This document shows positions 12,186-50,439 of a stretch of DNA of 62,545 nucleotides, one piece after another; positions within the stretch are counted from its first letter, which is position 1, and each line of letters opens with the position of its first letter. The DNA is from Chloroflexota bacterium (GTDB lineage Bacteria; Chloroflexota; Dehalococcoidia; Lucifugimonadales; UBA3495), in NCBI GenBank assembly GCA_027624135.1, contig JAQBXL010000002.1:1-62545 (forward strand), given 5' to 3'. Under the pieces are notes generated by a model. It saw only the letters and a list, made by a program, of their open reading frames with translations. It ran no database searches and was not told the origin of the DNA. Made by a program: the position numbers and the translations under genes.

Positions 12186-12755
12186 ATGGCTGAGACCGTA
12201 ACAGTAAGAAACATGAGACTCGTTAACCCCACCGGAACGTCGTTGTCCTCGGGTGATTTCCAATTGAACGACCGTCCTAACTCCCTTTCGGGGATGACCT
12301 TGGGCCTGCTGGAGAATTCCAAGGCCAACTCGGATAAGGTTCTTTACGAACTGGGCCAGATGTTGAAAGAGAAGTACGACCTGAAAGACATCGTCTACTT
12401 CAACAAGCATTCAGCGTCCTTGCCCACCAAGCCCGAAGTGGTACAGGACATGGTGAACAAGATTGACGTCTTGATTACCGGGATCGGTGATTGAGGCTCT
12501 TGCAGTTCGTGCAGTGTGCACGACGGGATCGAGATGGAGCGCCTAGGTTTGCCGACCGCTTCGATTATCACCCATGTATTCAACAACACGGCCAAGGCCA
12601 TGACGCGCATGATGGGCGTGCCTGACTTCGAGTACATCGTCGCTGAGCACCCTCTATCTAGTTTGACCGACGAGCAGTGCCGGGAACGGGCTGAGACTCT
12701 CCTGCCCGACGTTGAGCGAATCCTCCTTGGGAGCGCAGTCGCCAACACCATCTAG
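12186..12755 (+). CDS. UGSC-family selenoprotein (Sec at codon 103; UxxCxxC motif)
   Basis: ORF-track fragments 12186..12494 and 12516..12755 share a frame and are joined by TGA 12492-12494. The read-through gives ...VLITGIGD-U-GSCSSCSVHDGIEMERLGLP.... RBS GGGAGG sits only before 12186. A SECIS-like hairpin follows the TGA, and the terminator comes after 12755. Confidence 0.8.
12507..12523 (+). promoter_or_regulatory. Candidate bacterial SECIS hairpin for the UGSC gene
   Basis: UCGUGCA-GUG-UGCACGA (7 bp, or 6 bp with loop AGUGU). Begins 12 nt after the UGA, with G/U in the apical loop. Confidence 0.6.
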
Positions 12756-12781
12756 GAGCGCAAACCCTACTGAGCAGCTAA

Positions 12782-12820
12782 CGGGATGCCCCGATGTAAT
12801 CAGGGCATCCCGTGTTTCGT
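12782..12820 (+). terminator. Intrinsic terminator after the UGSC gene
   Basis: Perfect 10-bp stem CGGGATGCCC/GGGCATCCCG with an 11-nt loop, followed by TGTTTCGT. Confidence 0.55.
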
Positions 12821-13023
12821 ATCTGGGACCTTCGGCTCAGGAGTCGAAGTCATGTATCGAGGGCCAGGTTTTTGGTTGAATCACCCCTGGCCCTGTGGTA
12901 CGATTCCGCGTGGATTGTTACCAATTTCACGAACTATTATTCCTTATTGTTTCGGATCGTTTCGTTGAAATTCTCCACCCCTAAATTCCCCATCCCAAGC
13001 CCGATATTTCAGGAGCCCAACTC

Positions 13024-13503
13024 ATGAGTGGGCTAGAACAGCGGATCCACGCAGCAGTCCATGGTCAGGCCCAACCGACCGTCACCGTATTGTCGTCCCT
13101 GCTCGCCGTCGAAGATGAGTTGGGGTACCTCCCTAAAGAGGCAGTCGAGTTCGTCGCAAACTTCTCTGACACTACGGTCAACGACGTTTGGGCGGTGGCC
13201 TCGTTCTATCCCAACTTCCGGTTCGTTCCCCCTACCGAACACGTCGTGGAAGTCTGCTGGGGCGCTTCCTGCCACGTCGTCGGGGCCATGGCAGCGTTCA
13301 GATCCGTTCTGGAAGCCGCCGGTATGGAAGCGGAGGGCGACCGGCCTGATAACCGGGTCGCCGTGAAGCTCAACACCTGTCTTGGGGCCTGCTCCCAAGC
13401 TCCTGTGATGTCGATGGATCACCACTTGGCTGGAAGAATCACCCCCGAATCAGCCGCAAAGAACGTCGCCCGCCTTCTCGAGCAGGACGGCCATGGCGCC
13501 TAG
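13024..13503 (+). CDS. NuoE-like [2Fe-2S] thioredoxin-fold subunit (FdsG/HoxE-like)
   Basis: 159 aa. VCWGASC...C..GACSQAP cysteine pattern. RBS AGGAG. Confidence 0.85.
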   Translation: MSGLEQRIHAAVHGQAQPTVTVLSSLLAVEDELGYLPKEAVEFVANFSDTTVNDVWAVASFYPNFRFVPPTEHVVEVCWGASCHVVGAMAAFRSVLEAAGMEAEGDRPDNRVAVKLNTCLGACSQAPVMSMDHHLAGRITPESAAKNVARLLEQDGHGA

Positions 13504-15220
13504 TTTCTTAGAGATTGGGATAGAGGCTGATCGCCGTTGGCAAGGACTTATCGCCGGTGAGCGTCCTTGGATCCGGATCGGAACCGCCCTCTGCGGTGAA
13601 GCCGCTGGGGCTTTTGAAGTGGCCGCTGCCACCGAATCAGCACTGGAGAGTCAGGGTGTCGCCGCGGAGGTAAGCCGCGTCGGCTGTCTGGGTCTTTGTT
13701 TTGCCGAGCCGCTCCTGGACGTGCAACTTCCTGGGGGGCACCGCATCTTCTATAGCAATGTAGACGCCGAGAAAGTTGGCGAGATAGTTTCCTCCCATGT
13801 TGCCGGTGGCACTCCCGTTAAATCTTTGGCCCTTGGGTACTTGCCTCAAGAAGGCAGCGACGAACCGCTTCCCGAAGGCATCCCCGACCTGAACCAACAC
13901 CCGATGCGGGTTTGGGAGAATCGAATCGCCCTCAGGAACGCCGGTAACATCGACCCGTTGGACATCTATCAATACGTGGCCAACGGCGGTTATCAGGCAC
14001 TGCACAAGACACTGACCAACCTGAGCCGGGCAGAGACCCTTGAAGAAGTAAAAGCGTCGGGACTCAGGGGCCGGGGCGGCGCTGCCTTCCCCACCGCCAC
14101 TAAGTGGAGTTTCTTGGCTGGGAATCCGGCGCCGGAGAAATACGTCCTCTGCAACTGCGAAGAGGGCGACCCGGGGGCGTTCAACGACAAAAACATCCTT
14201 GAGAGCGATCCAAACACCCTGCTGGAAGGGGTCATCATTGCCGGGTATGCCACCGGCGCCAGCAAGGGATACATCTTCATCCGCCACGGCCACGACGGAC
14301 CCATCGAGCGCTGCCGGGCCGCCGTTCGCCAAGCTAAGGAATTGGGCTTGCTGGGCGAGAACATCATGGGCTCGGACTTCAGCTACGATGTTGAAGTCGC
14401 TCTGACCGGCGATTCCTACGTGGCCGGCGAAGAAACGGCGCTTATGGAGGCAATCGAAGGCAAAAGAGCCATGCCCCGCTTCCGCCCTCCATTTCCCGCG
14501 CAAGTGGGCCTCTTCGGCAAACCAACCAACATCAACAACGTCAAAACACTGGCTTACGTCCCAGAGATCGTCTCCAAGGGAGGTAAGTGGTTCGCCGACA
14601 TCGGCCATGACACCAGCACCGGCACGGCCATCCTCTGCCTCTCTGGCTCCTTGAATTACACCGGAATGGTGGAAGTTCCCTTGGGCATCAATCTGAAAGA
14701 CGTGATCTTTGAGGCCGCCGGGGGGATGCGGAATGGCAAGGCCCTGAAGCTGCTCCAGACAGGCGGTCCGCTGGGAGGCGTGCTGGGCGCAGACAGCGTG
14801 GACATATTGCTGGACTTCGAAGTGCTGAGAGCCGCCGGGGCCATCATGGGCTCAGGAGGTATCATTGCTGCAGACGAGACTGCCTGTGTGGTGGACCTGA
14901 CCCGGTCGCTGATCGCCTTCTGCCAATACGAATCCTGCGGGAAATGCTTCCCCTGCCGTATGGGCATGAGCCATCTTCTGGAGGTTCTGGAGCGGATCTG
15001 CCGCCTGGAAGGCACCGATGAAGACCTAAGCCTGATGCGAACCATTGGCGAAAACATGCAGGCCGGTTCCCTCTGCGGTCACGGACAGTTGGGCTTCAAC
15101 CCTGTGTCCTCGGCACTGCGCTACTTCGGGTCCGAATTTGAAACGCACATCGTGGACCGGACGTGCCCCACCGGGACCTGCTCCCTGCCACGATACTCCC
15201 CTGTGGCCTCGCGCCGCTAA
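13493..15220 (+). CDS. NuoF-like NAD(H)/FMN-binding [4Fe-4S] subunit with an N-terminal thioredoxin-like domain (FdsB-like)
   Basis: 575 aa. GLRGRGGAAFPTATKW, CNCEEGDPGAF and ESCGKCFPCRMG motifs. The start overlaps the preceding gene by 11 nt. Confidence 0.88.
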   Translation: MAPSFLEIGIEADRRWQGLIAGERPWIRIGTALCGEAAGAFEVAAATESALESQGVAAEVSRVGCLGLCFAEPLLDVQLPGGHRIFYSNVDAEKVGEIVSSHVAGGTPVKSLALGYLPQEGSDEPLPEGIPDLNQHPMRVWENRIALRNAGNIDPLDIYQYVANGGYQALHKTLTNLSRAETLEEVKASGLRGRGGAAFPTATKWSFLAGNPAPEKYVLCNCEEGDPGAFNDKNILESDPNTLLEGVIIAGYATGASKGYIFIRHGHDGPIERCRAAVRQAKELGLLGENIMGSDFSYDVEVALTGDSYVAGEETALMEAIEGKRAMPRFRPPFPAQVGLFGKPTNINNVKTLAYVPEIVSKGGKWFADIGHDTSTGTAILCLSGSLNYTGMVEVPLGINLKDVIFEAAGGMRNGKALKLLQTGGPLGGVLGADSVDILLDFEVLRAAGAIMGSGGIIAADETACVVDLTRSLIAFCQYESCGKCFPCRMGMSHLLEVLERICRLEGTDEDLSLMRTIGENMQAGSLCGHGQLGFNPVSSALRYFGSEFETHIVDRTCPTGTCSLPRYSPVASRR

Positions 15221-15285
15221 CCCAATCCGACTAATGACCGGTCTGGCTGTTGAAAGCTGGTCCGGCGAGAGATAGAGGCTGATAA

Positions 15286-18108
15286 TTGGCCGACGACATC
15301 ACCATCAGCTTTGATGGCCAAGAGTTCAAGACCCAGGCGGGCAAGATGGTCCTGGAAGCAGCCATCCAAGCCGGTGTCTACATTCCCTACCTTTGTTACC
15401 ACCCCGGAATGGAGTCCTACGGCGCCTGCCGGATGTGCGTGGTCAGCGTGGAAGGAGGGCGCGGCTTTCCCGCCTCCTGCACCCTGCCCGCCGCCGACGG
15501 CATGAAGGTCCAGACCGCTTCAGCCGAGGTCAATGACCTGCGCAAGTCGGTCATGGAGATGCTGATCGCTGAACATCCCAGCGGCTGCCTGACCTGCCAC
15601 CGGGTCGACATCTGCGGCCCCACCGATGTGTGTCTGCGCCACGTTTCGGTCAACGACCGCTGCGTCACCTGCCCCAAGAACGAACGGTGCGAACTCAAGG
15701 ACACTGTTCGTTATCTGGGTATGAACCTGGAATCTCCGCTGAATTACAAATACCGGCAGATACCATTGGAAGTGGCCGATCCATTTTATGACCGCGACTA
15801 CAACCTGTGCATCGTTTGCGGACGCTGTGTCCGTGCCTGCGAGGAACTTCGGGGCGACGATGCCATCGGGTTCACCATGCGCAGCGGACAGGCGTTGGTG
15901 GGCACTTCGTTCGGCACATCCCTGCTGGAGTCGGGCTGCGAATTCTGCGGAGCCTGCATCGATGTCTGTCCCGTGGGCGCTTTGGTCGAGAGGGACAATA
16001 AATGGGATAAACCCCGGACCGTCGAGCGAACCATCTGCCCGCTCTGCCCGGTGGGCTGCCAGTTGAACGTGGAGTACGACAACGAGGGTAAGCTGACCCG
16101 GGTCGTGCCTGAGATCAACTCACCAGCCAACCATGGCCAGGCCTGCTTCAAGGGCAAGTTCGGACTGCAATTCGTGAACGATGCCAGCCGCTTGCACTCG
16201 CCATTGGTGCGCCGGGACGGCCAACTGACCGAAGCGACTTGGGACGAGGCTTTGGAGGTGGTCGCCACTCGTTTTGCCGAGTATTCCGGTGAAGAGTTTG
16301 CTTTTCTCACCTCGCCCAACAGCACCAACGAAGAGCACTACCTGGCCCAGAAATTCGCCCGCTCGGCCATGAAGTCCAACAACATCGATCAGACCTCCAA
16401 TGTTCAGCCTGATCTGACCCGAGCTTTAGAGCAATCCCTGGGCTATGCCGGAGCCACTAACCCCATCTGGGACCTGGAAAAATCGGGGTGCATCTTAGTT
16501 TTCTGCAGCAACGTTACCGAAGAACATAACGTGGTCGGAGTGCCCATAAAACGGGCAGCGCGGAAGAACGCCAAACTGGTGGTTATCGACTCCAGAGAAG
16601 TGGAGTTGACCCGCTACGCGCATCTCTGGTTGCGTCCGGCGCCCGGCACGGAACAATTGCTACTGGGCGGGCTGCTCAAATCAGTGATTGATCAAGGGCT
16701 TCAAGATGATGAATGGCTGGCGGAGAATTGTGAGAGTCCAGCCACGCTCTATTACGCCCTCAGCGCCCTTGATCTGGAAGAAGTTTCGAAAGTAACCCAG
16801 GTCACTGTCGCGGACATCGCCGAAGCCGCCCGTCTGTACGGAGAAGCCGAAACGAGCGCTCTGGTCTACGCTCTAGACAATATTCAGCCCCGATTGGCCA
16901 GGGACACCGTTCTGTCCCTAGTGAATCTGGTTCTGGTGACGGGAAACCTGGGCAAGCCAAATGCCGGCATCTACCCGATGCGCTCTGGCGCAAATGAGCA
17001 AGGCGCCTGGGATGTGGGCTGCGTGCCCGACCGGCTGCCAGGCTACCGCCGCGTATCAGACTCACAGGACCGGCAGGAAGTAGAGGTGATCTGGGGCACT
17101 ACCATCCCCGAGACCCCTGGATTGGGTCTGACCCAGATGATTGATGGCTTTAGGGACGGCCAGGTCAAAGCGGCCTTTATCATCGGGGACAGTCCTAATT
17201 TCAGCAACGGCAAGCTGGGGGACGGGCTGGCCGCCTTAGACAATCTGGATTTTCTAGTGGTCTGCGACACGTTCTTGACCGACGCCGCCCAACGGGCCGA
17301 TGTTGTATTGCCGAGAGCAACCTTCGCCGAGAAAGATGGCACATACACAAATCTGGAGCGGCGTATTCAGCGTCTGAAACCAGGCAGGGAATTGCCTGAA
17401 GGAGGCGCGCGTTCGGATTGGCGGGTGATTCGCGATGTCGCCCACAAGATGGGAGTTCCCGGCTTTCAACTTGCATCGCCCTCTGAGACAATGGACGAGA
17501 TTGCCCGCGTGGCGCCAATTTATGCCGGGATATCTTACCGGACTCTAGCAAACCAGGGTGGTTTGGTATTCAAGACCGATCTGACCAGCCCACAGCCAAC
17601 GCAAGTGCTGTACGCCAGTCGCGAAGACCGGGGGCTACAGTGGCCGGTTCTGAGCGATGGCAAGGGAACGCCAATCTTGTACGAAGGTGGCTTCAACGAC
17701 CGGAAAGCAGAGCCCATCACACCGGCATTCGTGGCGGCGGAGGATCGAGCAGACCCTGATTTCCCACTCTGGTTCGTTCCCGGCAGGGTTCTGCTGCAGC
17801 AAGAACGGGATATCGAGATAGTCAAAGGACGCCGAAATACCATCCGCAGGGATGAATTCGTGGAATTGAATCCCGCTGATGCGGCCTCTTGGTCTATCAC
17901 GGAAGGCGCTAGGGTGGAAGTGGATATGCTTATTGGGCGGCTTGCTGGATTGGCTCGAATCAACGAATCAATCCCTGTCGGTGTCGTCGCTTCCACGTCC
18001 CTCTTCGGGCAATTGGCGGTCGACCTGCAAGGCTCCGAAGAGATGGAGGCCGCAACCAGAGTGCCAGGTTTGGACATCCGCCGGGCACGGATCAACAAGA
18101 TCGGTTAG
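15286..18108 (+). CDS. NuoG / NAD-dependent formate-dehydrogenase alpha-like Fe-S molybdopterin-fold subunit lacking the catalytic Sec/Cys-His pair
   Basis: 940 aa with a TTG start after GAGG. N-terminal 2Fe-2S and multiple 4Fe-4S motifs, and CPLCPVGC...CFKGK. The FdhF-like segments align (TGNLGKPNAGIYPMRSGANEQG). The ...ARVUHGPS... position reads SNVQPDLT. Confidence 0.85.
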   Translation: MADDITISFDGQEFKTQAGKMVLEAAIQAGVYIPYLCYHPGMESYGACRMCVVSVEGGRGFPASCTLPAADGMKVQTASAEVNDLRKSVMEMLIAEHPSGCLTCHRVDICGPTDVCLRHVSVNDRCVTCPKNERCELKDTVRYLGMNLESPLNYKYRQIPLEVADPFYDRDYNLCIVCGRCVRACEELRGDDAIGFTMRSGQALVGTSFGTSLLESGCEFCGACIDVCPVGALVERDNKWDKPRTVERTICPLCPVGCQLNVEYDNEGKLTRVVPEINSPANHGQACFKGKFGLQFVNDASRLHSPLVRRDGQLTEATWDEALEVVATRFAEYSGEEFAFLTSPNSTNEEHYLAQKFARSAMKSNNIDQTSNVQPDLTRALEQSLGYAGATNPIWDLEKSGCILVFCSNVTEEHNVVGVPIKRAARKNAKLVVIDSREVELTRYAHLWLRPAPGTEQLLLGGLLKSVIDQGLQDDEWLAENCESPATLYYALSALDLEEVSKVTQVTVADIAEAARLYGEAETSALVYALDNIQPRLARDTVLSLVNLVLVTGNLGKPNAGIYPMRSGANEQGAWDVGCVPDRLPGYRRVSDSQDRQEVEVIWGTTIPETPGLGLTQMIDGFRDGQVKAAFIIGDSPNFSNGKLGDGLAALDNLDFLVVCDTFLTDAAQRADVVLPRATFAEKDGTYTNLERRIQRLKPGRELPEGGARSDWRVIRDVAHKMGVPGFQLASPSETMDEIARVAPIYAGISYRTLANQGGLVFKTDLTSPQPTQVLYASREDRGLQWPVLSDGKGTPILYEGGFNDRKAEPITPAFVAAEDRADPDFPLWFVPGRVLLQQERDIEIVKGRRNTIRRDEFVELNPADAASWSITEGARVEVDMLIGRLAGLARINESIPVGVVASTSLFGQLAVDLQGSEEMEAATRVPGLDIRRARINKIG

Positions 18109-18184
18109 ACGAAGCTAGATATTGACTGCCACTGGGCCAAAAGGCCAAGTTGCGATAATCATGGCACGAATCCAAGGAGTAAGA

Positions 18185-18952
18185 ATGGCAGAGGTAACAA
18201 CCACGAGGCAGGCCGGCGCTCCGGACCTGACCCCCAACCAAGCGTTCCCAACGGCCAAACTGGTGGAACGCCGGGACGTAACCGAAGACCTGATGGTCAT
18301 CAAGCTGGAACCGTCGGAGCAGTTCAACTTCAAGCCTGGCCAGTACTGCACCTTGGGACTGGGCAAGATTGAACGGGCCTATTCAATAGTCTCGGCACCA
18401 TATGAGAAGAACCTTGAAATCTTCGTGGAACTGGTGCCAGATGGAGAATTGACCCCCCGCATGTGGGATCTGAAGGTCGGTGATCGCATGTCGGTCCGGC
18501 CCAGGGCCAAGGGTATCTTTACGCTTGACCGAAAGATGCACCACCACTTCATGCTATCAACAGTCACCGGAGTGGCCCCGTCGGTAAGCATGGTTCGCCA
18601 GTACCTGCACGACGGCGCCGATGAGAACCACGTTTTCTACATCATGTACGGCGCCAGCTACATCGACGAATTGACCTACGACGTTGAGTTCAATCAACTG
18701 GCCAAAGAGCATCCCGAGACCGTAAAGTTCGTCCCTACGATCAGCCGCCCAACTGAGGCTAAAAACGCCGGTTGGAAGGGTGTCACTGGGCGGGTTAACA
18801 CAATTGCCGAGGAATACTTGGCGAAGTTTAATCTCCCCAAGGACGATACCAAGGTGTACGCTTGCGGCCACCCTGGAATGATCGAAGAGATGAAAGAGAA
18901 GCTTCCACCCCAGGGTTGGAACTTCATCGAAGAGCGCTTCTGGAAACCCTAA
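18185..18952 (+). CDS. Ferredoxin-NADP+ reductase (FNR/Fpr family)
   Basis: RAYSIVS FAD motif and TVTGVAP NADP motif. Start set at ATG 18185, 5 nt after AGGAG. Confidence 0.85.
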   Translation: MAEVTTTRQAGAPDLTPNQAFPTAKLVERRDVTEDLMVIKLEPSEQFNFKPGQYCTLGLGKIERAYSIVSAPYEKNLEIFVELVPDGELTPRMWDLKVGDRMSVRPRAKGIFTLDRKMHHHFMLSTVTGVAPSVSMVRQYLHDGADENHVFYIMYGASYIDELTYDVEFNQLAKEHPETVKFVPTISRPTEAKNAGWKGVTGRVNTIAEEYLAKFNLPKDDTKVYACGHPGMIEEMKEKLPPQGWNFIEERFWKP

Positions 18953-19071
18953 CCCTCACGTAATAAAGCAATTCCGCCGTTCACGGTTCGAAACACGTGA
19001 CCCGCAGATGCTCCCATCGGGCAGGATTGGGAGTAGAATGGCCGGTGTAATCAACAGGGCATGGTTGGGTT

Positions 19072-21657: not shown

Positions 21658-21806
21658 CTCCTGTGTATTTAGCCTCTTGAATCAGCCCCTTTTCTCGGGA
21701 CAAACTTGGGTATAAGATTCGCCAGGGATTTTGACAACCGGTTCTGGTTGGATAGATCATTGGCGGCAGTCGCTCCCAGATTCTTCCAGAGAAGTCGGAG
21801 GATAGA

Positions 21807-22166
21807 TTGAGTCAGACAATCGAATTCTACTGGTGGCCCCGTTGATCGAGCTGCCGTAAAGTAAGAGAGTTGCTCTTACAGAAGGGACTCGAAGTATCGG
21901 ACCGTGACTTCTTCAAAGACGCTTTAAGTGAGGACGAGGTCCAGGAGTTGGCTGCCATGGCCGGCGCTGAGAATATCTTCGCCCGGCGCAGTCCCAGTCT
22001 CAAGAAGTTGGGCCTGGCTGACAAAGTCCTCTCGGACGACGAGATGATTAATCTGATGCTGCAAGAACCCAAGTTGATGCGCCGTCCGCTGCTCAAAGTG
22101 GGTGACAAGATAATGGTCGGGGCTGGGAACGCTGCGGTAGAAGAGGCCATTGCCGAAGCTGGCTAG
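21807..22166 (+). CDS. ArsC/Spx/YffB-family thioredoxin-fold selenoprotein (Sec at codon 13; UxxC)
   Basis: TTG 21807 lies 5 nt after GGAGG. My translation is MSQTIEFYWWPR-U-SSCRKVRELLLQKGLEV..., which continues in frame into ORF 21870..22166. TGA 21843-21845 sits at the family's first CxxC cysteine. MRRPLL motif is present. Confidence 0.78.
21861..21879 (+). promoter_or_regulatory. Candidate bacterial SECIS hairpin for the ArsC-like gene
   Basis: Perfect 7-bp stem GUAAGAG/CUCUUAC with loop AGUUG. Starts 15 nt after the UGA. Confidence 0.6.
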
Positions 22167-22313
22167 CGGCTGTAGACACAGAATGCCCTCGACGATTGTT
22201 TGAATTAACCGGTGAAGTTCAGCAACAGTTCCAGGGGCTGGCCCATCTATAATAGTGATCGGTAAACATTAATCGCTAAAGAAATCTAGAACGAAAAGGC
22301 CCGATACCCACCA

Positions 22314-22751
22314 ATGAAGATATTCTTCGATGTGGACTACACCATCCTTGGGTTGGATAATAGCCTGAGGCCGGACACCAAGGAAACTTTCCAGGCGTTG
22401 TTGGACGAGAATCACGAGATCTATATCTGGTCAGGGATGGGTGAACGTTGGGAAGTCGTCAACAAATTCGAATTGAACCCCTTTGTCAGCGGCGTGTACG
22501 AAAAGCCGACACACCACTTCCACGAACGATTGGAAGAGTTGGGCGTGCCCTTCGAGCCCGACTTTGTCATCGACGACTATCCGGAGGTGGTTGCGGCCTT
22601 CGGCGGAGTGTGGGTCCCACCGTATTTCTTCAATCGCTCAGTGGACCAAGAGATGCAGCGCATCTACAGGATCGCCTGCGATTTTGCCGCCACCGGGACC
22701 TCCGAAGACAAGCAATACCGCAAGAAAGGCACCATAGTTCCCCTCTTCTAA
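22314..22751 (+). CDS. HAD-superfamily hydrolase-like protein
   Basis: 145 aa. N-terminal FFDVDYTI (DxDxT motif I). Confidence 0.6.
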   Translation: MKIFFDVDYTILGLDNSLRPDTKETFQALLDENHEIYIWSGMGERWEVVNKFELNPFVSGVYEKPTHHFHERLEELGVPFEPDFVIDDYPEVVAAFGGVWVPPYFFNRSVDQEMQRIYRIACDFAATGTSEDKQYRKKGTIVPLF

Positions 22752-24548: not shown

Positions 24549-24781
24549 CAATGACCAAGCATGGTGGCCGCGCGCTGGAATCTGCGGTCCATTCCCTAAT
24601 ATCTGTCATTCTGAGGCGTCAGCCGAAGAATCTGGTGCCTTCTGAAGCGACATTTGCCAAGAACAAAAAGACCCCTCACTACGTTCGGGGTGACAATGGC
24701 GGTCGAAACGGGGCAACGCGTCAATAAGGGCAATCACCGTTTGCGAGGACCAAACCCGGTTGGAAGAGGTGAATCAGGGTG

Positions 24782-25009
24782 TTAGCCGTTGCGGCGTGAA
24801 TCCTGGCGAGGGTCTGAAGCCGGATGGAAGATGGAGTCTTCACCGGGGAAGCCTTGGGAAGCAGTTTCGTCTGGGCTATTGCGGAAACGGCCCAGCATTC
24901 CCAACGGTCCGCCGACAATCGCCAGTGCGGCCGCGCCCAAACCCATCTTGGCTAGAAAACTGCGGCGGGTCTGGCCGGGTTTTTGTTCGGGTTCGCTCTT
25001 CTTGGCCAA
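24782..25009 (-). CDS. Small secreted protein with a twin-arginine (Tat) signal, function unknown
   Basis: 75 aa with a TTG start 6 nt after AGGAG. TRRSFLAKMGLGAAALA Tat motif. TAA stop. Confidence 0.55.
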   Translation of the reverse strand: MAKKSEPEQKPGQTRRSFLAKMGLGAAALAIVGGPLGMLGRFRNSPDETASQGFPGEDSIFHPASDPRQDSRRNG

Positions 25010-25117
25010 GTTATTCTCCTATGGCGTCCGCTCTTGCGAACGTGTGTTGCCCCAGGTTGTCCTTGGGACAGCTAGATTGTACAAGACAGGCCGGGATTTG
25101 CAACAGCAGGTTCGGCG

Positions 25118-26458: not shown

Positions 26459-27531
26459 CAGCTAAGTTCCCCTGTCGGTTCAATGGCTCGACCGCTGGTC
26501 CCGCGGCTGGCCGTTATCTCCCGGAGTGACAGGTCGTTTTTCCATAGGAGGGCCAGGCCGACCAGGTTGACCGGCAGCCAAAGGGCGATCAGGTGGACGA
26601 ACCCGCTATAAGCCAGCGCCAGCTCTCCGCCCACGCCCAGGGCAATCAGTGTCTTCTGGGCGACAACCTCGAAGGGGCCGATGCCGCCGATGGCGCTTGG
26701 TATGGACGTTGCCAGGTTGGACGTTGCAGTCAACAGCAGTACCACCAGGATTAAGACCCACACCGAATCGAAGTGTTCATCGATGCCAAAGGAGTAGGCC
26801 AGCATGAAATACATGGAGCCTTCGAGCAACCAGACAGGCAGCGAGTAGATGAATAGCGCCAGGTGTTTGCCGGGTGAATTCAACACCGCTAGCCCAGCCA
26901 CGAACGTCCTGAAGAGTTCCTTTACCTTGGGCCGGAGGCCTGGAGGAACGATGTTTAAGCAGCCTTCGAGCCGGTTGGCGAAGGACGCGGAGCTTCCGAG
27001 CAGGGTGAACAGCGCCAAGAATACGGAAAACGCAAATACGGTCCCGGCCAGAATCAACAGCCCGGTGGTGCGCGAAACATCGACTGTGCCGTCAAATTCT
27101 CCCAGTAGCAGCAACCAAGGCGCGGATAATGCGGCGAAAGCCAGCAGGGTTATCCCATCGTAGATACGTTCTACGGCGATGGTCGCCAGGGCCGAACCGG
27201 TGTTTATATTCTCCTGGCGGGCCAGAAAGTAGGAGCGGACGACCTCGCCCAACCGGACGGGCAGGAGATTGTTGGCCATGTAACCGATGATCACCACCGG
27301 GTAGAGCCGCCGCACCGGGATGCTCCCCATGGGCGCGAGCAGGTAACGCCACCTAGTGGCGCGGAACCAAACGGCAACGAAATAGATGGCGATAGACGGC
27401 GCCAACAGAGAGTAATTGGCGTCCTGAAGGGCGTTTTTAAGCTCTCCCAGGTCCACCTGGTACAACAGTAGAAGCAGCAAAGCGACACTGACAGCGCCGC
27501 CCAACCAGAACTGCCATTTCTTGGTGATCAA
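26458..27531 (-). CDS. UPF0104 / lysylphosphatidylglycerol-synthase-TM-region (flippase-like) membrane protein
   Basis: 357 aa, polytopic. WRYLL...MANNLLPVRLGEVVR motif typical of the family. Confidence 0.7.
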   Translation of the reverse strand: MITKKWQFWLGGAVSVALLLLLLYQVDLGELKNALQDANYSLLAPSIAIYFVAVWFRATRWRYLLAPMGSIPVRRLYPVVIIGYMANNLLPVRLGEVVRSYFLARQENINTGSALATIAVERIYDGITLLAFAALSAPWLLLLGEFDGTVDVSRTTGLLILAGTVFAFSVFLALFTLLGSSASFANRLEGCLNIVPPGLRPKVKELFRTFVAGLAVLNSPGKHLALFIYSLPVWLLEGSMYFMLAYSFGIDEHFDSVWVLILVVLLLTATSNLATSIPSAIGGIGPFEVVAQKTLIALGVGGELALAYSGFVHLIALWLPVNLVGLALLWKNDLSLREITASRGTSGRAIEPTGELS

Positions 27532-27607
27532 CTACCGTGTCCTTCTGATCCTTGTTCCCTGACTTGGAGACTATTCTGGCTTAATACGAGACCAGCCGCA
27601 AACCCAC

Positions 27608-30304
27608 TCATTCTGTTCGCTGTGTAAAGGTATAGTAGTTACCGTTGTACCAGTCCGGCTTCAGGTCCCGGAATATCCAATAATCCAAGACGTTGCGCCA
27701 GGTTTCCCTGCTGCCCGCCACGTCTTTGAAGAATCCCCAGTCCTGTTTTAGCTCATCCTTCCATGGTTCGTCTTGGCGACCTTCACCAGGTCGGCGGTAG
27801 GTCTCGGGAAACCAGAGCAAACTACGCAGCGCCTCGCTCTTCTCGTATCCTGCCAACTCAGCGCCGTTCCGGTCGGCGTGGGCTGAGGTCAGCAGCAGAG
27901 CCGCTGGTTTGTACGCGTCATCGGCCGGTGATTCAGCCAGAGAATTACAGCCGTCGTTCCAGCCGTCGTCGGACTCAGCTTTGAAGCAGGTAAATCGCAG
28001 GAGTCCACCTGATTCGGCGTTCCGCACGTACCACTGGAACGGGTACCAGATATCATAGTCCACCTCCACCGCGCGACGCTGTCCGTCCGGGTCCTCTTGC
28101 TGTCCTACGGAAAACACCTCAGCGTCCAGGGAGGCAAAAGTCTCCTTCAGGTCGGAACCGCCTTGGGCATAGACGAGTATCTCGCGGTTCGAATCATCGA
28201 AGGTGTAGCCGGCTCGGAATGCGCTCCAGGTTCCGAACCCCAACAGCAGAGCAGCCAGACCCAACGCGGCAAGAGCCTCGCCCCTGGCAGGAGACGTTAG
28301 ACGTATCAGATAAGCAGTGGCGGCCAAAATTACCGCCGAACATGCCAGCACCGTCCAGTGCCCGGAGGTCAGACTGCCCTCTCCACCGGTGTAGGCGTAC
28401 AGGAAGAATAATCCTCCGAGGACTGACACGGGCGCTAGGAAGAACGGCACCGCTGCCCCCATTGGCAGCGCTTGCTTCCAGCGTACCGACTCGGCCAACT
28501 CCCCGAGGAATTTGGCCGACACGAAGATCAAAGGCAGGGTGATGTTCACCAGCAGCCAGGGCATCTTCTCGCTGGCCACGGTGTAGGCCAAGAAGGTTAT
28601 TGCGGCCCACAGGGTCAGAAACAGGCCCAAAACATCGCCCCGTTTGAGGAAATAGGCCGCCCCTGCGATGCCGAAGACCAGCGGGAGCAACTCGTAGACC
28701 GGCAGGCCCACGAAATAGTAGTACCAAGGCTGATTGCCCCTGGCGACGTCCTGCTGGGCGACCCAGTAGCCCATGCCCTGCCAGGAACCGCTGAACACTC
28801 CAGCGAGATTGGTGAAGAGAGTCGTGTACAGGGCAGCCCAGATGAAGTAGAAGATACCGGCGCAGATCAACCAGGCGTTGCCCAGCCAGCGCAATCCCAG
28901 GACGACAGACAGGATGATAGCGCCGGATAGGACACCCAAGGCAACCACGTAATTCACGGGCAGGCCAGCTGAGGCGGCTCCGACCGTCACCCCGCTCGGC
29001 AGTATCCCGTTCACCACTGCCTCTAGGTCCAGCGCCGGTGTGAACAGGATCGCGTACAGAGCCGTCACAAAGGCCGGAAGAAACAACAACAGGCCGTTAC
29101 GCTGGAGGGAATAGCGATGGTACACCAGTGCGGATATCCCCCCGACTATCAGGAGGATCGCCAGCGTCAGGTCGATTACCGGCACCCGTCCCGTCTGGAC
29201 CGCGTCTGCGATCGGGCGGTAGAGCAGAAAAGCGATTCCTGCGGCCATCGCCAACGGAACTCCGGCGAGGCAGATGATCCGCTTCGGCGTTATGGGACCC
29301 TTCGAGAGCAGCCAGGCCAATATTGCCAGGCCCAAGACAACCGCTAAGACATGTATACCAAGGGGAAGGTCCTGCACCGGCAGCAGCAGAGTGCTACCCT
29401 CCCAGGCCGGGGCGCCCACCAGTCCATCCGAGCCGTCCACGTTCGGCACGTTCCGGCCAGTCTGCGGGTCCGGGTTGGCCAATGTCAGCCCCAAAGGCTC
29501 TAGAAACAAAGCTGAGAGAGCCGACCATTGGGGCAAACTGATGGTCGTCAGCAGGAGGAAGAACCCGGCGGGGCGTCCCACCTGAGACAGCTTGATACGG
29601 CCCAGCGCCCAAGGAGCCACATCGCTTACGGACAGCACCAATAGAAGCAGTCCGAACACCGCCACCACCAAGTACGCTGTTTCTTTGGTGGCGAACATCA
29701 GGGCCAAGAGCGCGGATGCCAGGTAGAGGTACCGGCGATGTCCCTCATTTATGTAGCGCCACATCACCACCAGTAAGGACGCCGCGAAGAAAGCCATTAT
29801 GATGTCGTTGCGCCCGAAACGGCTGAAGTATAGGAGTGTCGGTGACAAGGTCAGCATCACGGCCGCCAGGAAGGCCCCGTAGCGGCCCAGGTAGTCTCTG
29901 AAGAAGTAGGGAACTGCGACTAACGCCGTGCCAAAGAGCACGTAACCCAGTCGGGCGGTCACCTCGGTGTCGCCGAAGATGCGGAACATCACAGCGGTGA
30001 ACTCGATCTGGAACGGGCCGTGCATCCAGGGTGAATGCAGGTAGTCGCTGCCAAATATCCAGGGCCAGCCCAGGTAGCCGCCGCTACTCTCCGACAGACG
30101 CCAGGCGAAGTGCAGGTGGATGGCCTCGTCGTAGTGCATGGTGCGGCCGCCCAACTCCCAAAGACGCATGACCAATGCCACTATGATTACGGCTAAAAAC
30201 CCGGCTTCGAACCAACCAAAGGTGCGGACGGTCCATAGCCCAGTTATGACTGCTTTAGGTGAGGGGGCCGTTTTTATCCAGCCCGGCGTTCTCTTGCTGA
30301 TCAA
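27608..30304 (-). CDS. TIGR03663-type GT-C (PMT/ArnT-like) membrane glycosyltransferase family protein
   Basis: 898 aa, highly hydrophobic. MHYDEAIHLHFAW first-loop DE motif. TTGA overlap with the upstream YYY-domain gene. Confidence 0.7.
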   Translation of the reverse strand: MISKRTPGWIKTAPSPKAVITGLWTVRTFGWFEAGFLAVIIVALVMRLWELGGRTMHYDEAIHLHFAWRLSESSGGYLGWPWIFGSDYLHSPWMHGPFQIEFTAVMFRIFGDTEVTARLGYVLFGTALVAVPYFFRDYLGRYGAFLAAVMLTLSPTLLYFSRFGRNDIIMAFFAASLLVVMWRYINEGHRRYLYLASALLALMFATKETAYLVVAVFGLLLLVLSVSDVAPWALGRIKLSQVGRPAGFFLLLTTISLPQWSALSALFLEPLGLTLANPDPQTGRNVPNVDGSDGLVGAPAWEGSTLLLPVQDLPLGIHVLAVVLGLAILAWLLSKGPITPKRIICLAGVPLAMAAGIAFLLYRPIADAVQTGRVPVIDLTLAILLIVGGISALVYHRYSLQRNGLLLFLPAFVTALYAILFTPALDLEAVVNGILPSGVTVGAASAGLPVNYVVALGVLSGAIILSVVLGLRWLGNAWLICAGIFYFIWAALYTTLFTNLAGVFSGSWQGMGYWVAQQDVARGNQPWYYYFVGLPVYELLPLVFGIAGAAYFLKRGDVLGLFLTLWAAITFLAYTVASEKMPWLLVNITLPLIFVSAKFLGELAESVRWKQALPMGAAVPFFLAPVSVLGGLFFLYAYTGGEGSLTSGHWTVLACSAVILAATAYLIRLTSPARGEALAALGLAALLLGFGTWSAFRAGYTFDDSNREILVYAQGGSDLKETFASLDAEVFSVGQQEDPDGQRRAVEVDYDIWYPFQWYVRNAESGGLLRFTCFKAESDDGWNDGCNSLAESPADDAYKPAALLLTSAHADRNGAELAGYEKSEALRSLLWFPETYRRPGEGRQDEPWKDELKQDWGFFKDVAGSRETWRNVLDYWIFRDLKPDWYNGNYYTFTQRTE

Positions 30305-32721
30305 TTGTTCTCGGCCGGTGATTCGATCATCTCGTAGATTATTACGCCGTCCTGCTGAAAGGCGGTTCTCAGGAACTCACTGAAGTCCGTGAAGTCCGTC
30401 AGTTTTTCAGCCCCGTAGGTACTTCGTTCCCTGGAGCCCAGGTAAACGTAGCGCACATCGTAGGCGTTCAGCAACCGGCGCACTTCCTGGGGGTCGCCGC
30501 TGTTGTAGATGGCCTTCACGTCATCTTCCCGGCCCTGGAAGGATGCGCTTGAACTGCGCCACTGAAGTTCGTGACCCTTCCAACCCAAGATGGTCGGCAG
30601 TCCGGTGCTGGATGATATCCGGGCAAATTCAGAGTAATCGTTGCCCACTGCCTCCACCATCCTGCCCCAGGGGGCCTCGTCCCTCAACCATTGGATGGCA
30701 GCGTATTCTCCCGGCGCTGACGGTTGTAGAAAGGCCAACCCGTCCAGAGTGTTGTCAGACACCGTGTGACCCTCACGAAGTATTCCGGTGCGGTCGAGTA
30801 CCGCTCCTACTGGGTAATAGAGAGACGCCACCAGCAACACAACTGCGGTCCCGGCCCATATAAACCGGCCTGCACGCAAGAACCGGTCCAGACGCAGGGA
30901 GTGTTGGAGGGAGTGTTGGATCGAAGAACGGACCGACCATAGGTAATACAAGCCGTAAGCGCCGACGATTCCCAGTAGGAACCAGGCTTGATAGTAAGTT
31001 TTGAAGACTGTGTTCATACGCCGGAAGCCGCCGCCGAACTGGTCGGCCACGTAAAATAGCTCGGCCCCTACCAACAATAAGATGGCCAACGCTGCCAGCA
31101 GCAGGGGGAATACCGCTACTGGCTCCAGTTTTAGCCTGGCGCGTTGCATGGCGCTGAACCCGGCCAGAGCCACCAAAGCCAGCCCGGGTATAACCAGTAT
31201 TGCCCGCCCGCCAATCTCCCCAAAGGCGGCTCCGGCGCCGTCATCGATCCAGGTTACGATGAACGCCACCCCGATCCAGACCAAGAACGGCGTTGATGTT
31301 ACGACCATCATCAAGATTGCCGCCGAATTATCGACATCAGATGGTCGAACGAGACTCGGGAGCTGGCGGAACAAGAACGAGACGGCCAGGAAGATCAATG
31401 GCCCCATGACCAAGAACAACAAGAAGGGTCTGGTGTTCACTTCCCGCAGCGGCAAAATGCCCGACGTCTGCGCTTCGAAACCGCTGTAGAACGGCAGGAA
31501 CATGGCCACGGCCAGCACCAAGATGGGCACGATTGTCATGGCGGCGTCCAGGGCCGCTCTTGTCAGGTTTCCGCCCTGGTCCCCGTAGGCTTTGACCAGC
31601 GCCACCGCGACCAGCATCGCCGCGATCACAGGCAGGTCCCAGAGGTTGATGAAGGCCAAAGAACCGATGAACAGTGCGATGGCCGCCGATTCCACCGGGT
31701 TGTCTTTCAACCAGTTCAGACCCAGCCTTCCCGTGGACAGGTAGATATTTAGGCACAGGCCCAGGCCCAAAATGACGAATGGCAGGCTCATCACGTGGGG
31801 GTGCAAGTCGCCAAGGATGTAGCTGAATATGGGAAATTCGGTGATGGTGTAATCCAGGCTCTGGCCGCCGGACAGAGTGTCGATCAAGCGGCTGGCCCGG
31901 AACCACCACCACTGACCGTCAGGGAAGGCCCCAGAGCCGGTATTCGCACCCTCCAAGCCTTTGATGCCGACCCATTCCCAGAATCCGCTGCCGGCCCATC
32001 CTCGGAGATGGACGAACTCCATCGCGCCTTCCAGATTTCCGGCTAGGATTATCAACAGGGGGGCCGTTCCGCCGAATATGATGCCGGCTCTTAAGCTCCC
32101 TCCTGACAGGCGGACCAGGTTGTAGACCAGCCCGAAGGCGCCCATAGCCACCAACGCTGGAACCAAAGCAACGCTCAAGTTGTAGCCCACGCTGGACGCG
32201 ACGCCGGTGAATTGGGTCAGGAAAGCCATCATGAAATGGCCGAAATAGTAATAGCTGATGGAGTATCCTGACAGCCAAGGGTCTTCAGGGGGGAAGAATC
32301 GGCTCTGGAGCACCGCGTTCATGAATCCGAAATCCATGGGCTTTTCGGTGTGGTTGATCGCGGGAACCTCGGAGATTATCCCCAGCCACATCAAGAAGAA
32401 TCCGATGAACAGGACCTCGGCGGCCACCAACATCGGCCAACTTTGGCGTACGAAGCCCTTGATCTCCGCGAGGAACCGGCGCAGCAGAAAGCCGCTGGGG
32501 ATGGCGGCGACGACTAGAATGATAACGATGGTTAACTGAGTGTTGGGTGCGATGTGGGTCAGGCCCAAGACCCAGAGGATGTAGGAGAAAAACACCATGG
32601 CCGCCGGCATGGCCAGGGTGAAACCGCGGTCGGGCAGCCGCCTAAACAGCACGAAGGCTGCGGGAAGGGCCAGTACACCCATACCCTTGACGGCGGCAAA
32701 CCAGATCAGCGAGTCTAGCAA
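30301..32721 (-). CDS. DUF2298 / Chlor_Arch_YYY-domain (TIGR03662) integral membrane protein
   Basis: 806 aa, polytopic. Diagnostic SISYYYFGHFMMAF motif. Confidence 0.75.
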   Translation of the reverse strand: MLDSLIWFAAVKGMGVLALPAAFVLFRRLPDRGFTLAMPAAMVFFSYILWVLGLTHIAPNTQLTIVIILVVAAIPSGFLLRRFLAEIKGFVRQSWPMLVAAEVLFIGFFLMWLGIISEVPAINHTEKPMDFGFMNAVLQSRFFPPEDPWLSGYSISYYYFGHFMMAFLTQFTGVASSVGYNLSVALVPALVAMGAFGLVYNLVRLSGGSLRAGIIFGGTAPLLIILAGNLEGAMEFVHLRGWAGSGFWEWVGIKGLEGANTGSGAFPDGQWWWFRASRLIDTLSGGQSLDYTITEFPIFSYILGDLHPHVMSLPFVILGLGLCLNIYLSTGRLGLNWLKDNPVESAAIALFIGSLAFINLWDLPVIAAMLVAVALVKAYGDQGGNLTRAALDAAMTIVPILVLAVAMFLPFYSGFEAQTSGILPLREVNTRPFLLFLVMGPLIFLAVSFLFRQLPSLVRPSDVDNSAAILMMVVTSTPFLVWIGVAFIVTWIDDGAGAAFGEIGGRAILVIPGLALVALAGFSAMQRARLKLEPVAVFPLLLAALAILLLVGAELFYVADQFGGGFRRMNTVFKTYYQAWFLLGIVGAYGLYYLWSVRSSIQHSLQHSLRLDRFLRAGRFIWAGTAVVLLVASLYYPVGAVLDRTGILREGHTVSDNTLDGLAFLQPSAPGEYAAIQWLRDEAPWGRMVEAVGNDYSEFARISSSTGLPTILGWKGHELQWRSSSASFQGREDDVKAIYNSGDPQEVRRLLNAYDVRYVYLGSRERSTYGAEKLTDFTDFSEFLRTAFQQDGVIIYEMIESPAENN

Positions 32722-32734
32722 GGGTTACCTGATC

Positions 32735-32764
32735 GGGCTTGGGCTTGGGCTTGGGCTTGGGCTT
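32735..32764. repeat. Hexanucleotide microsatellite (GGGCTT)x5
   Basis: Five perfect tandem copies, 14 nt upstream of the YYY-domain gene start (minus strand). Confidence 0.95.
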
Positions 32765-32806
32765 GAAATGAAGAAGTCCTGGCTGGAGCTGATCGGGTTA
32801 AATCGC

Positions 32807-33763
32807 TTAGGAAACGGGCGCCAGCAGAGATTCCACGAAGTCCCGAGAGTCGAATGGCGCCAGGTCGGTCACGGTTTCGCCGGTGCCAATGAACAGGATC
32901 GGCATCTGAAGTTCCTGCTGGATGGCAAGAACGATGCCGCCCCGGGCTGTTCCGTCCAATTTGGCGAGGAAAATGCCGGTACAATTTACTGCTTCCTTGA
33001 AAGCTTTGGCTTGGGCCAAGCCGTTGAGGCCGGTCGTGGCGTCTAGGGTCAAGATCACCTGATGGGGCGCCTTGGGTTCCAGCCGGGCCAAAACCCGGTG
33101 GACCTTGCGCAATTCCTCCATCAGGTTGGACTTGGTATGGAGCCTGCCGGCAGTGTCGACGATCAACACGTCCGCGCCTCTGGCCTTGGCCGCCATGTAG
33201 GCGTCGTAGGCGACTGCACCGGGGTCGGCCCCCGATTCGTGTCTAATAACATCTACGCCGATCTGTTTCCCCAGAATCTCCAATTGCTCGGCGGCAGCGG
33301 CCCTGAACGTGTCTGCCGCGCCCAGCATCACCTTCTTCCCCTCTGCGGTGAAATGGTGGGCCAGCTTGGCGATGCTGGTGGTTTTGCCCACTCCATTGAC
33401 GCCCACCATCAGTATCACATACGGCCCGTTCACCGCAGTCTCATCCATCCAGAGAGATTCGGCGTTTTCAGACTCCATGCTGGACATCAAGTTCTCTTTC
33501 AACGACTCGAATACCTCATCGCCCGACTCTAGCCGCCGTTCCTTAACGGTGGCTTTCAAGTCTTCGATGATGCGCAGAGATGTTTCCACTCCAACGTCAG
33601 AGGAGATCAATATCTCTTCCAACTCCTCCCAGAGCGAGTCGTCCAGCTTGGAAGAGCGGAGCACATTGAGGATACGTCCGAACCACCGCTCACGGCTGGG
33701 TTTCACGGCGTCCTGGGTGTGTTCCAGGTTCTCCTGGCGGTTACGTTTGAAAAATCGGAGCAT
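32807..33763 (-). CDS. ftsY: Signal recognition particle receptor FtsY
   Basis: 318 aa. GVNGVGKTTSIAKLA and DTAGR SRP-GTPase motifs. Confidence 0.95.
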   Translation of the reverse strand: MLRFFKRNRQENLEHTQDAVKPSRERWFGRILNVLRSSKLDDSLWEELEEILISSDVGVETSLRIIEDLKATVKERRLESGDEVFESLKENLMSSMESENAESLWMDETAVNGPYVILMVGVNGVGKTTSIAKLAHHFTAEGKKVMLGAADTFRAAAAEQLEILGKQIGVDVIRHESGADPGAVAYDAYMAAKARGADVLIVDTAGRLHTKSNLMEELRKVHRVLARLEPKAPHQVILTLDATTGLNGLAQAKAFKEAVNCTGIFLAKLDGTARGGIVLAIQQELQMPILFIGTGETVTDLAPFDSRDFVESLLAPVS

Positions 33764-33876
33764 CTATCGTCCTATGACGTCCTGAGACCGAATAATACCA
33801 GGCCGGATTAAGCCGGCAGGAGGGCCAAGTCTTGATGATCATCTTGTATCTTGGAGGCGGCGCGATCGGATGGAAT

Positions 33877-34548
33877 CTACGGGTTTCCAGACAATGCGGT
33901 CAAAGCAGCCTCGGCTGCGGCGCCTTCGGCATCAGATTTCTTGCCGCCAATGCCTGAGCCAACAACCTCGCCGTCTACCATGACCTCTACCGTAAACACG
34001 GGCCCGTGATCTGGTCCTTCACTGCTAACCAAGCGGTATACGGGCGGATTCAACCCTCGTCCTTGGACAATCTCTTGGAGCGTGGATTTGGGGTTCTCCG
34101 GTGGTCTGCCGGTCCTCTCGACTTGGGTTAGTTCCGCATCGAATAGACCGATTATGAACCGGCGGGTGAACTCGTTGCCCTGGTCCAAATAAACCGCTGC
34201 GACAAGAGCCTCAAAGGCGGCAGCCAAAATCGAGTCCTGGTGTCGTCCATTAGTGGAATCGACACCCTTACCCACTAGTAGTCGATTCCCCAGGTCAATA
34301 CGGCGGGCGATCCGCGCTAGGGTTTCACCCCGGACCAAAGAGGAACGGCTCTTGGTCAAATCGCCTTCGGCGGCGTCGGGAAGACGGCGGTAGAGCTCTG
34401 TGGAGATGGCAAGTTCCAACACAGCGTCGCCCAGGAATTCTAGCCGTTCGTATGACTCAGATGGGTCCAGGTCGTTCTCGTTGCAATAGGAACTGTGCAC
34501 TAATGCCAGACGCAACAGGCTGGGGTCTTTGAAGGAGAACCCCAGCAC
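33877..34548 (-). CDS. rnc: Ribonuclease III
   Basis: 223 aa. ERLEFLGDAVLEL signature and a C-terminal dsRBD. The GTG start is uncertain: upstream in-frame residues look conserved, but no canonical start is present. Confidence 0.92.
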   Translation of the reverse strand: MLGFSFKDPSLLRLALVHSSYCNENDLDPSESYERLEFLGDAVLELAISTELYRRLPDAAEGDLTKSRSSLVRGETLARIARRIDLGNRLLVGKGVDSTNGRHQDSILAAAFEALVAAVYLDQGNEFTRRFIIGLFDAELTQVERTGRPPENPKSTLQEIVQGRGLNPPVYRLVSSEGPDHGPVFTVEVMVDGEVVGSGIGGKKSDAEGAAAEAALTALSGNP

Positions 34549-34600
34549 TGTTTGAAGAGCTTTGACCGAATCTTGGGAATTTATGGCGGCGACGATGTCC

Positions 34601-35233
34601 CTAGATTACCCCGTGAGGCCAGGGGGGCTGAGGACGCTTGAACTCGCCGACGTGATTAAATTCACTCATGGCCTTGGTCAGGGTGTCGTAGATCTCCACT
34701 GCCTGTTCATCCGGAGGAATGAACATCTTCAGGAAGGTGGCGTTGTTTTCGCCAAACACGAAGGTCGGGACACCGAAGGCGCCGTACTCTTCCACTGCTA
34801 TGGTGTGGGACTTACCGATGTCTTCCAGTAAGTCCGGGTCTTTCTGGTCTTCTCGGAAACGGGCCATATCCAGACCGGCGGCGACCGCGGCTTCTTCCAT
34901 GACTGCCGGGTCGGTCAGGTCCTTCTTATCTTCGTGGCGGGCCCGGAGCAGAGTCATGAAGAATGACTTGAACGCTTCATCGCCCTGGCGTTTGGCGGCG
35001 AGGCCCGACATATGTGCCAGGAAGGTATTGTCGGTTCCGTCCAACACCCCAGGCTGCTCCCAGAGCTTGACGTCGTTTTCTCTGTCGCTGTTCACCTGGG
35101 CCAGTGAGAACGGTTGCCAATCTACAGTAACTGTCTTTCCGGTAGACTCTTCAACTTTCGACAGCCACACGGCTGCGTTGTACACGAAGGGTCAACGAAA
35201 GTCATAGAAAGTAGTGAAATCTGCATCGGCCAT
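34601..35233 (-). CDS. DsbA-like thioredoxin-fold selenoprotein (Sec at codon 14; U-P-F-V in place of C-P-x-C/S)
   Basis: ATG 35233 follows GGGAGG. My translation is MADADFTTFYDFR-U-PFVYNAAVWLSK..., in frame with ORF 34601..35185. TGA at 35192-35194 (minus strand) occupies the DxxCPxxY active-site position of DsbA/HCCA-isomerase-like proteins. Confidence 0.78.
35161..35176 (-). promoter_or_regulatory. Candidate bacterial SECIS hairpin for the DsbA-like gene
   Basis: The minus strand reads G-CAGCC-GUGU-GGCUG-U. Starts 15 nt after the UGA, with G/U in the loop. Confidence 0.55.
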
Positions 35234-50436: not shown

Positions 50437-50439
50437 AGA

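Follow-up and report, generated by a model that had tools for sequence, protein, structure and literature searches.

Whether a TGA codon inside a reading frame ends a protein or is read as selenocysteine (Sec) is the question raised three times by the stretch of DNA analysed here, 62.5 kb of contig JAQBXL010000002.1 from a Chloroflexota genome assembly (hereafter the window). A first-pass annotation, made from the letters alone, had placed three UGA-to-Sec recoding events between positions 12186 and 35233, and these two coordinates are the start codons of the extended open reading frames (ORFs) of the first and the third gene concerned. From our comparative sequence analysis it is very probable that the window holds three genuine selenoprotein genes of Dehalococcoidia (SAR202-type), encoding a UGSC protein, an ArsC/Spx protein with a UxxC motif and a DsbA-like protein with a DxxUPxV motif, in which UGA-to-Sec recoding would be directed by a selenocysteine insertion sequence (SECIS).

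Three extended reading frames and their relatives

All six frames of the window were translated with TGA written as U, and the three extended ORFs with an in-frame TGA are called c1, c2 and c3. The gene content of the window is rplKAJL-nusG-tuf-tRNAs, the c1 cluster, mutS, c2, mutL, membrane proteins, ftsY, rnc, c3, dinG, nuoABCDHIJKLMN and eno, and its named relatives are SAR202 cluster and Dehalococcoidia metagenome-assembled genomes (MAGs). The c3 orthologues were collected by scanning one genome per species, which gave 80 Dehalococcoidia/SAR202 genomes, many of them closed chromosomes (including OZ240213.1, OZ244707.1, OY763929.1, OZ244817.1, OZ253670.1 and OY762444.1). A metagenome scan yielded 65 loci for c2, and 11 of these form the c1 set; in these 11 loci the c1 orthologue lies ∼9.4 kb upstream of the c2 orthologue, as in the window. 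The related loci amount to ∼2 Mb in total and cover only the neighbourhoods of the c1, c2 and c3 genes. Protein-database homologues are the best 120 matches per query. The features of the three genes are as follows.

12186..12755, + strand: c1, predicted UGSC-family selenoprotein gene; ATG start, 189 codons including Sec103, motif D-U-G-S-C-S-S-C
12176..12182, + strand: c1 Shine-Dalgarno (SD) sequence GGGAGGA, 3 nt upstream of the ATG at 12186
12492..12494, + strand: c1 predicted Sec codon TGA, context LITGIGD-U-GSCSSCSVHDG; TGA in 11 of 11 orthologous metagenome loci covering the site
12507..12523, + strand: c1 SECIS-like hairpin, 7 bp TCGTGCA/TGCACGA, loop GUG
21807..22166, + strand: c2, predicted ArsC/Spx-family selenoprotein gene; TTG start, 119 codons, Sec13, motif U-S-S-C
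21797..21802, + strand: c2 SD sequence GGAGGA, before the TTG at 21807; SD match in 54 of 56 orthologues
21843..21845, + strand: c2 predicted Sec codon TGA, context EFYWWPR-U-SSCRKVREL; TGA in ∼62 of 65 related metagenome loci
21861..21879, + strand: c2 SECIS-like hairpin, 7 bp GUAAGAG/CUCUUAC, loop AGUUG
34601..35233, - strand: c3, predicted DsbA-like (Rv2466c-like) selenoprotein gene; ATG start at 35233, 210 codons, Sec14, motif D-F-R-U-P-F-V, without resolving Cys
35240..35246, - strand: c3 SD sequence GGGAGGA, before the ATG at 35233; SD match in 80 of 80 orthologues
35192..35194, - strand: c3 predicted Sec codon TGA, context MADADFTTFYDFR-U-PFVYNAAVWL; TGA in 80 of 80 Dehalococcoidia/SAR202 species genomes
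35159..35177, - strand: c3 SECIS-like hairpin, 6 bp GCAGCC/GGCUGU, loop GUGU, plus two outer pairs across a bulged U

The TGA codons occupy cysteine positions of known protein families

The three TGAs had been assigned to redox-active Cys positions, and each of them is found there: comparison of the UGA sites with Cys homologues gave Cys/Sec pairs for all three proteins, and each TGA is aligned with a Cys of full-length homologues. For c1, searched with U replaced by C, the score against the NCBIfam model NF041046 ('UGSC family (seleno)protein') is 141.4 bits for a curated cut-off of 125, which places the protein in this family, and Pfam PF24696 covers residues 12-181 in a single stretch across the TGA (186 bits). 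Its 'GIGD-U-GSCSSC' segment is aligned with 'GDCGSCS' in 10 full-length homologues, with Cys at the U position. With its D-U-G-S-C motif, its length and its score above the cut-off, c1 resembles the NF041046/PF24696 family, that is, the 'UGSC-containing protein' of the Global Ocean Sampling (GOS) and Sargasso Sea selenoproteomes.

The c2 protein matches PF03960 with 66.8 bits and scores 71.6 against TIGR01617 (cut-off 75.05). With the 'ArsC family (seleno)protein' model NF041106 it reaches only 35 bits, below the curated 85, so that its placement is limited to the ArsC/Spx superfamily (PF03960) and the GOS 'ArsC 2, UxxC' group, whose motif it carries. Its 'WWPR-U-SSCRK' is aligned with 'WWPRCSSCRK' of the homologue P0179, and full-length relatives carry Cys: FYWWPRCSSCRKV. 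The closest solved structures are Spx proteins, in which U is aligned with Cys10, the first Cys of the Spx CxxC switch. Like GOS 'Arsenate reductase 2' (cd03032 ArsC_Spx, UxxC) and Spx/MgsR, c2 has the ArsC-family fold, with UxxC at the place of the Spx CxxC redox switch. However, it is shorter than Spx (119 against 131 amino acids), and the likeness to Spx/ArsC is by fold and motif only, so that the protein may be a regulator or a reductase.

For c3, Pfam reports PF01323 (65.4 bits) and PF22234 (36 bits), whereas no NCBIfam model matches. The protein has the pfam01323 domain, U as the first residue of the active-site motif and Val instead of Cys at +3, which are the characters of a DsbA-like selenoprotein. 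Its 'YDFR-U-PFVYN' is aligned with 'YDFRCPFVYN' of P0036 and others, and the Cys homologues carry FYDFRCPFVYNA. D-F-R-U-P-F-V fits both GOS 'DsbA 3' (pfam01323, UxxV) and 'DsbA-like protein form 2' (DxxUP, PMC13188914), the latter being likened by its motif description. The closest solved structure is PDB 7dk9, whose DsbA domain has only one Cys in its 'CPYA' site; there U is aligned in 'FLCPYAW'. With PF01323 and PF22234 together and a single-nucleophile active site like the CPYA of 7dk9, c3 resembles the Rv2466c-like DsbA subfamily (PDB 7dk9, 4wkw).

The first-pass annotation had described all three sites as thioredoxin-fold or reductase motifs. For c1 a thioredoxin fold is not evident. A structure search found no close solved structure for c1. 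The AlphaFold model of a UGSC homologue (P0242; predicted local distance difference test, pLDDT, 90.8) is a sandwich of five beta-alpha units in which the U/C residue occupies the N-terminal end of helix three, and Foldseek with this model returned weak flavodoxin-like matches only (template modelling score, TM, 0.4-0.5). Because the matches are weak and flavodoxin-like, a 'thioredoxin-like fold', as the literature assumes, is not evident, and the model points to a flavodoxin-like sandwich instead.

The sequence upstream of the TGA behaves as translated sequence

A strong ribosome binding site had been noted before the extended ORFs and none at the truncated start. GGGAGGA, GGAGGA and GGGAGGA are indeed read before c1, c2 and c3, no such site precedes the truncated starts, and the c3 orthologues extend this observation. 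In all 80, the start codon lies exactly 13 codons upstream of the TGA (75 ATG, 5 GTG) and is preceded by a 5-nt SD match, whereas an SD sequence precedes the truncated start in none of the 80. Moreover, variation in the 13 codons that precede the TGA of c3 falls mostly on third positions (81 sequences), and the upstream codons of c2 have a mean variability of 0.13, 0.14 and 0.31 at positions 1, 2 and 3. It is thus strongly supported by the substitution pattern that the pieces 5' of the TGA evolve like translated sequence in c2 and c3.

These data bear directly on the possibility that the TGAs are true stops, the short downstream ORFs being functional or the genes decaying, and the upstream pieces being untranslated leader. 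Gene callers do yield exactly such truncated models. However, the truncated products would be without the catalytic residue, their starts in c3 lack the SD sequence that the upstream start always has, the upstream codons vary as translated codons do and the Pfam UGSC model runs through the TGA of c1 in one stretch. A stop held at one exact codon in 80 species, and always at the Cys position, is not decay either, and we regard true stops as very improbable. Sequencing or assembly errors for TGC or TGT could be suspected in a window that is a single metagenome scaffold. Yet the same TGA is present in 80, ∼62 and 11 independent assemblies (c3, c2 and c1, respectively) from many projects, long-read closed chromosomes among them. 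This conservation excludes assembly error as well as decay, and the error explanation is effectively refuted.

In c2 (21840-21842, + strand) as in c3 (35195-35197, - strand), the UGA is directly preceded by the Arg codon CGU. Among loci L003-L147, the third position of this codon is invariant in c3 (81 sequences) and almost invariant in c2 (0.04; 51 sequences). The sequence immediately 5' of the recoded UGA may thus be under constraint.

A SECIS-like hairpin follows each UGA

The consensus model of bacterial SECIS elements (bSECIS; Zhang & Gladyshev, summarised in PMC13188914, Fig. 2) has an apical loop of 3-9 nt in which position 1 or 2 (or both) is G, as a rule with G or U as the next base, an upper stem of 4-16 bp, a UGA-to-loop distance of 16-37 nt and a minimum free energy (MFE) of ≤ -7.5 kcal/mol. 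The hairpins of c1, c2 and c3 fall within all four ranges, with loops of 3, 5 and 4 nt, stems of 7, 7 and 6 bp, distances of 19, 22 and 21 nt and MFE values of -8.9, -8.1 and -11.1 kcal/mol (33-nt segments). They begin 12, 15 and 15 nt past the UGA, and G and U are present in each loop (GUG, AGUUG and GUGU), in agreement with the geometry first described, namely a hairpin 12-15 nt after the UGA with G and U in a loop of 3-5 nt. Such a hairpin is found after only 0.9% of the 1912 TGA triplets of the window and at 0.65% of in-frame codon positions.

The geometry is conserved. The loop G-U is kept in all orthologues of the three genes. Over the 11 c1 orthologues the stem differs only by a C-to-U replacement, through which G-C becomes a G-U pair, and in the c2 helix 99% of cells are paired (28 distinct sequences), the pair 20-36 being UA in 14, CG in 12 and UG in 2. 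In the 81 c3 sequences third codon positions are invariant within the hairpin, whereas the flanking ones vary (0.35-0.67). The outer c3 pair 18-36 covaries (UA 15, CG 8, none broken) and is shared by three sub-lineages with slightly different registers. Because of these registers, RNAalifold picked a different and poorly supported consensus fold for the c3 set, which was replaced by a hand-defined common core. In one syntenic c3 orthologue (L149) the site is Cys (TGT) and the hairpin is lost.

As in SelB/SECIS recoding of E. coli fdhF and in the bSECIS model, the hairpins lie within the coding sequence directly 3' of the UGA and have a small loop with G then U and a stem of 6-7 bp. In contrast, they have no sequence similarity to E. 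coli SECIS elements, and the likeness is one of geometry; Rfam gave no SECIS family at the gathering threshold in the window and none at E ≤ 10 around c2. By analogy with fdhF, the ribosome would start at the upstream, SD-preceded start codon and then reach the UGA, 19-22 nt downstream of which the hairpin would present its small G/U-containing apical loop. SelB.GTP.Sec-tRNA(Sec) would bind the hairpin and deliver Sec to the UGA, and translation would go on past it, with Sec in place of the nucleophilic Cys.

Decoding of the UGA and the Sec machinery

Several results weigh against Sec insertion. Over the 45-60 nt that follow the UGAs, total folding energy is ordinary compared with dinucleotide shuffles and synonymous recodings, and 9% of synonymous c1 recodings still form such a hairpin. 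For both reasons the hairpin signal of a single sequence is, taken alone, modest, and folding energy, which does not discriminate, was dropped as a criterion in favour of geometry and conservation. A c2 orthologue with Cys (TGC) at the site (L148, 365-736) retains the full 7-bp hairpin, which shows that a hairpin alone is no proof of recoding. It seems that this gene changed from Sec to Cys recently and that the hairpin is what remains of its SECIS; PMC1794560 describes this pattern. Moreover, selA, selB and selD (Pfam) and tRNA-Sec were not found within the window, in line with the earlier remark that none of selA, selB, selC or selD is recognisable there. ARAGORN detected no tRNA-Sec in 60 loci and the metagenome loci (∼2 Mb, only c1-c3 gene neighbourhoods), where tblastn with approximate E. 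coli SelA, SelB and SelD sequences matched only EF-Tu and a TypA/BipA-like GTPase. Since the related loci are only the neighbourhoods of three genes, the missing Sec machinery says little there.

This absence from the window and the related neighbourhoods, together with the W that some pipelines put at the site, could be taken to favour a decoding of UGA other than as Sec, either by general reassignment (Trp or Gly) or through a tRNA-Sec-like tRNA(Cys) that inserts Cys with the aid of SECIS and SelB. The latter has been described for a few bacteria. However, TGA terminates at least 6 of 15 confident, well-defined genes of the window, which excludes general reassignment, and site-specific Cys insertion is rare; no result lends support to the insertion of a residue other than Sec at these particular sites. 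The sites are, moreover, exactly those of known Sec/Cys exchange in catalogued selenoprotein families (PMC2398784). Decoding as another amino acid is accordingly given a small probability, and we infer insertion of Sec and also the presence of selA, selB, selC and selD in the lineage. Some Chloroflexi have been reported to use Sec and to have tRNA-Sec (PMC1794560; PMC5389517), and a literature search for SAR202 with selenium or Sec found no open paper linking the two.

The first-pass annotation had also concluded that the organism is rich in selenoproteins, which proved to be an extrapolation. No further candidate was obtained in the rest of the window, where coding-score screens and screens of G+C content at third codon positions (GC3) for in-frame TGA gave only antisense or off-frame artefacts. 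A motif-plus-hairpin screen of the ∼2 Mb of related loci returned only the c1-c3 families and the TGA of nuoF, which was rejected as a real stop.

Gene neighbourhoods

The gene directly upstream of c1 encodes a protein of 347 amino acids without Pfam, NCBIfam or PDB match, and single-sequence AlphaFold gave no usable fold (pLDDT 30). In three unrelated loci, one of them in a Citricoccus genome, a Cys-type UGSC gene is directly adjoined by a gene for a homologue of this protein (33-39% identity, E 3e-84 to 8e-60).

11006..12049, + strand: 347-aa gene of no known family, directly upstream of the UGSC gene
L154 4931-6004; L153 6543-7667; L155 3091-4185: homologues of the 347-aa protein beside UGSC

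From this gene order, UGSC and the ∼350-aa protein look like a conserved two-gene module. The GOS paper (PMC2398784) mentions a 'UGSC/Unknown_1' fusion, whose non-UGSC part probably corresponds to the 347-aa protein. On its other side c1 adjoins a cluster (13024-18952) of NuoE-like, NuoF-like, FdhA/NuoG-like and FNR-like proteins, whose position is kept in the 11 related metagenome loci. This cluster is what sets c1 apart from the three other UGSC loci, in which it is absent; otherwise nothing material differs. A functional tie between UGSC and the NuoEF/FdhA-like cluster was considered and is weakened by these three distant loci. As they keep the partner without Nuo-like genes, the conserved unit would be UGSC with the 347-aa-type protein.

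The FdhA-like gene (15286-18108, + strand) had been noted to have neither Sec nor Cys at the expected site. This proved correct: in residues 371-378, 'SNVQPDLT', Gln374-Pro375 are aligned with the Mo-ligand Cys and the catalytic His of R. capsulatus FdsA (6tg9_A). The protein thus lacks the Sec/Cys ligand followed by His of formate dehydrogenase alpha subunits, and it scores below both the Fdh-alpha model (TIGR01591, 509.6 against 666) and the NuoG model (TIGR01973, 335 against 470). The nuo operon (48828-60342) contains nuoA, B, C, D, H, I, J, K, L, M and N, and nuoE, nuoF and nuoG were not found there; its NADH module may thus be provided by the NuoE/NuoF/FdhA-like cluster. Within this operon, the 660-nt gap between nuoC and nuoD holds two small ORFs of 83 and 128 amino acids (50440-51101, + strand), an unusual insertion.

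A 145-aa ORF without family match lies 3' of c2 (22314-22751, + strand). The gene at 936-1373 of L148, downstream of its c2 orthologue, is 78% identical to it, and L151 likewise has a called gene of 145 amino acids at this place. Elsewhere in the window, Rfam identified a ribosomal protein L10 leader (3262-3406, - strand; 44.3 against a gathering threshold of 44) upstream of rplJ-rplL.

Mis-annotation and significance

The three families are not new. The GOS marine-metagenome selenoproteome of 2008 (PMC2398784) lists 'UGSC-containing, UxxC' with 255 sequences, 'Arsenate reductase 2, cd03032, UxxC' with 42 and 'DsbA 3, pfam01323, UxxV' with 5, and a 2026 review (PMC13188914) lists UGSC (NF041046) and the DsbA-like 'form 2' DxxUP. 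As families and motifs are already listed, the kind of gene, the families and the mechanism are all known. The case of c1-c3 is a correct recognition of catalogued selenoprotein families, of value for annotation and not as a discovery, and it leaves the knowledge of Sec recoding unchanged; only the taxonomic placement and the extent of c2 and c3 mis-annotation may be new.

As for the latter, the first-pass claim that standard ORF calling mis-annotates these genes is confirmed. In the source assembly, c3 is annotated as a protein of 194 amino acids, and nearly all database relatives among the matches listed are fragments that begin just after the TGA (189-196 amino acids for c3, 96-101 for c2). 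For c3 there is no curated selenoprotein hidden Markov model (HMM) in NCBIfam, and public annotations therefore truncate it. A second type of mis-annotation, besides truncation, is TGA read as Trp: a few database proteins have Trp at the Sec position (P0109, P0121, P0122 and P0242). For P0121 the DNA, on a short contig (L151 134-508), reads TGA at the site, so that its Trp comes from a gene caller using a TGA=Trp code.

In nearly all public gene calls for the clade, c2 and c3 lose their catalytic residue. It follows from such truncation or Trp reading that the redox metabolism of SAR202, where inferred from MAG annotations, would miss or misread c2- and c3-type genes. At the same time, the finding gives a taxonomic home, in Dehalococcoidia/SAR202, to selenoprotein families mostly known from unassigned marine reads. 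A wider picture, doubtful as a whole, would be that SAR202/Dehalococcoidia is a clade-wide Sec user whose selenoproteins are truncated in essentially every public annotation, and that UGSC with its 350-aa protein forms a module coupled to the NuoE/NuoF/FdhA-like dehydrogenase lacking Cys/Sec-His, with the selenoprotein as redox partner. SAR202/Dehalococcoidia are among the most abundant lineages of the dark ocean and, if this picture were true, they would show a clade-wide use of Sec that has not been discussed as such before.

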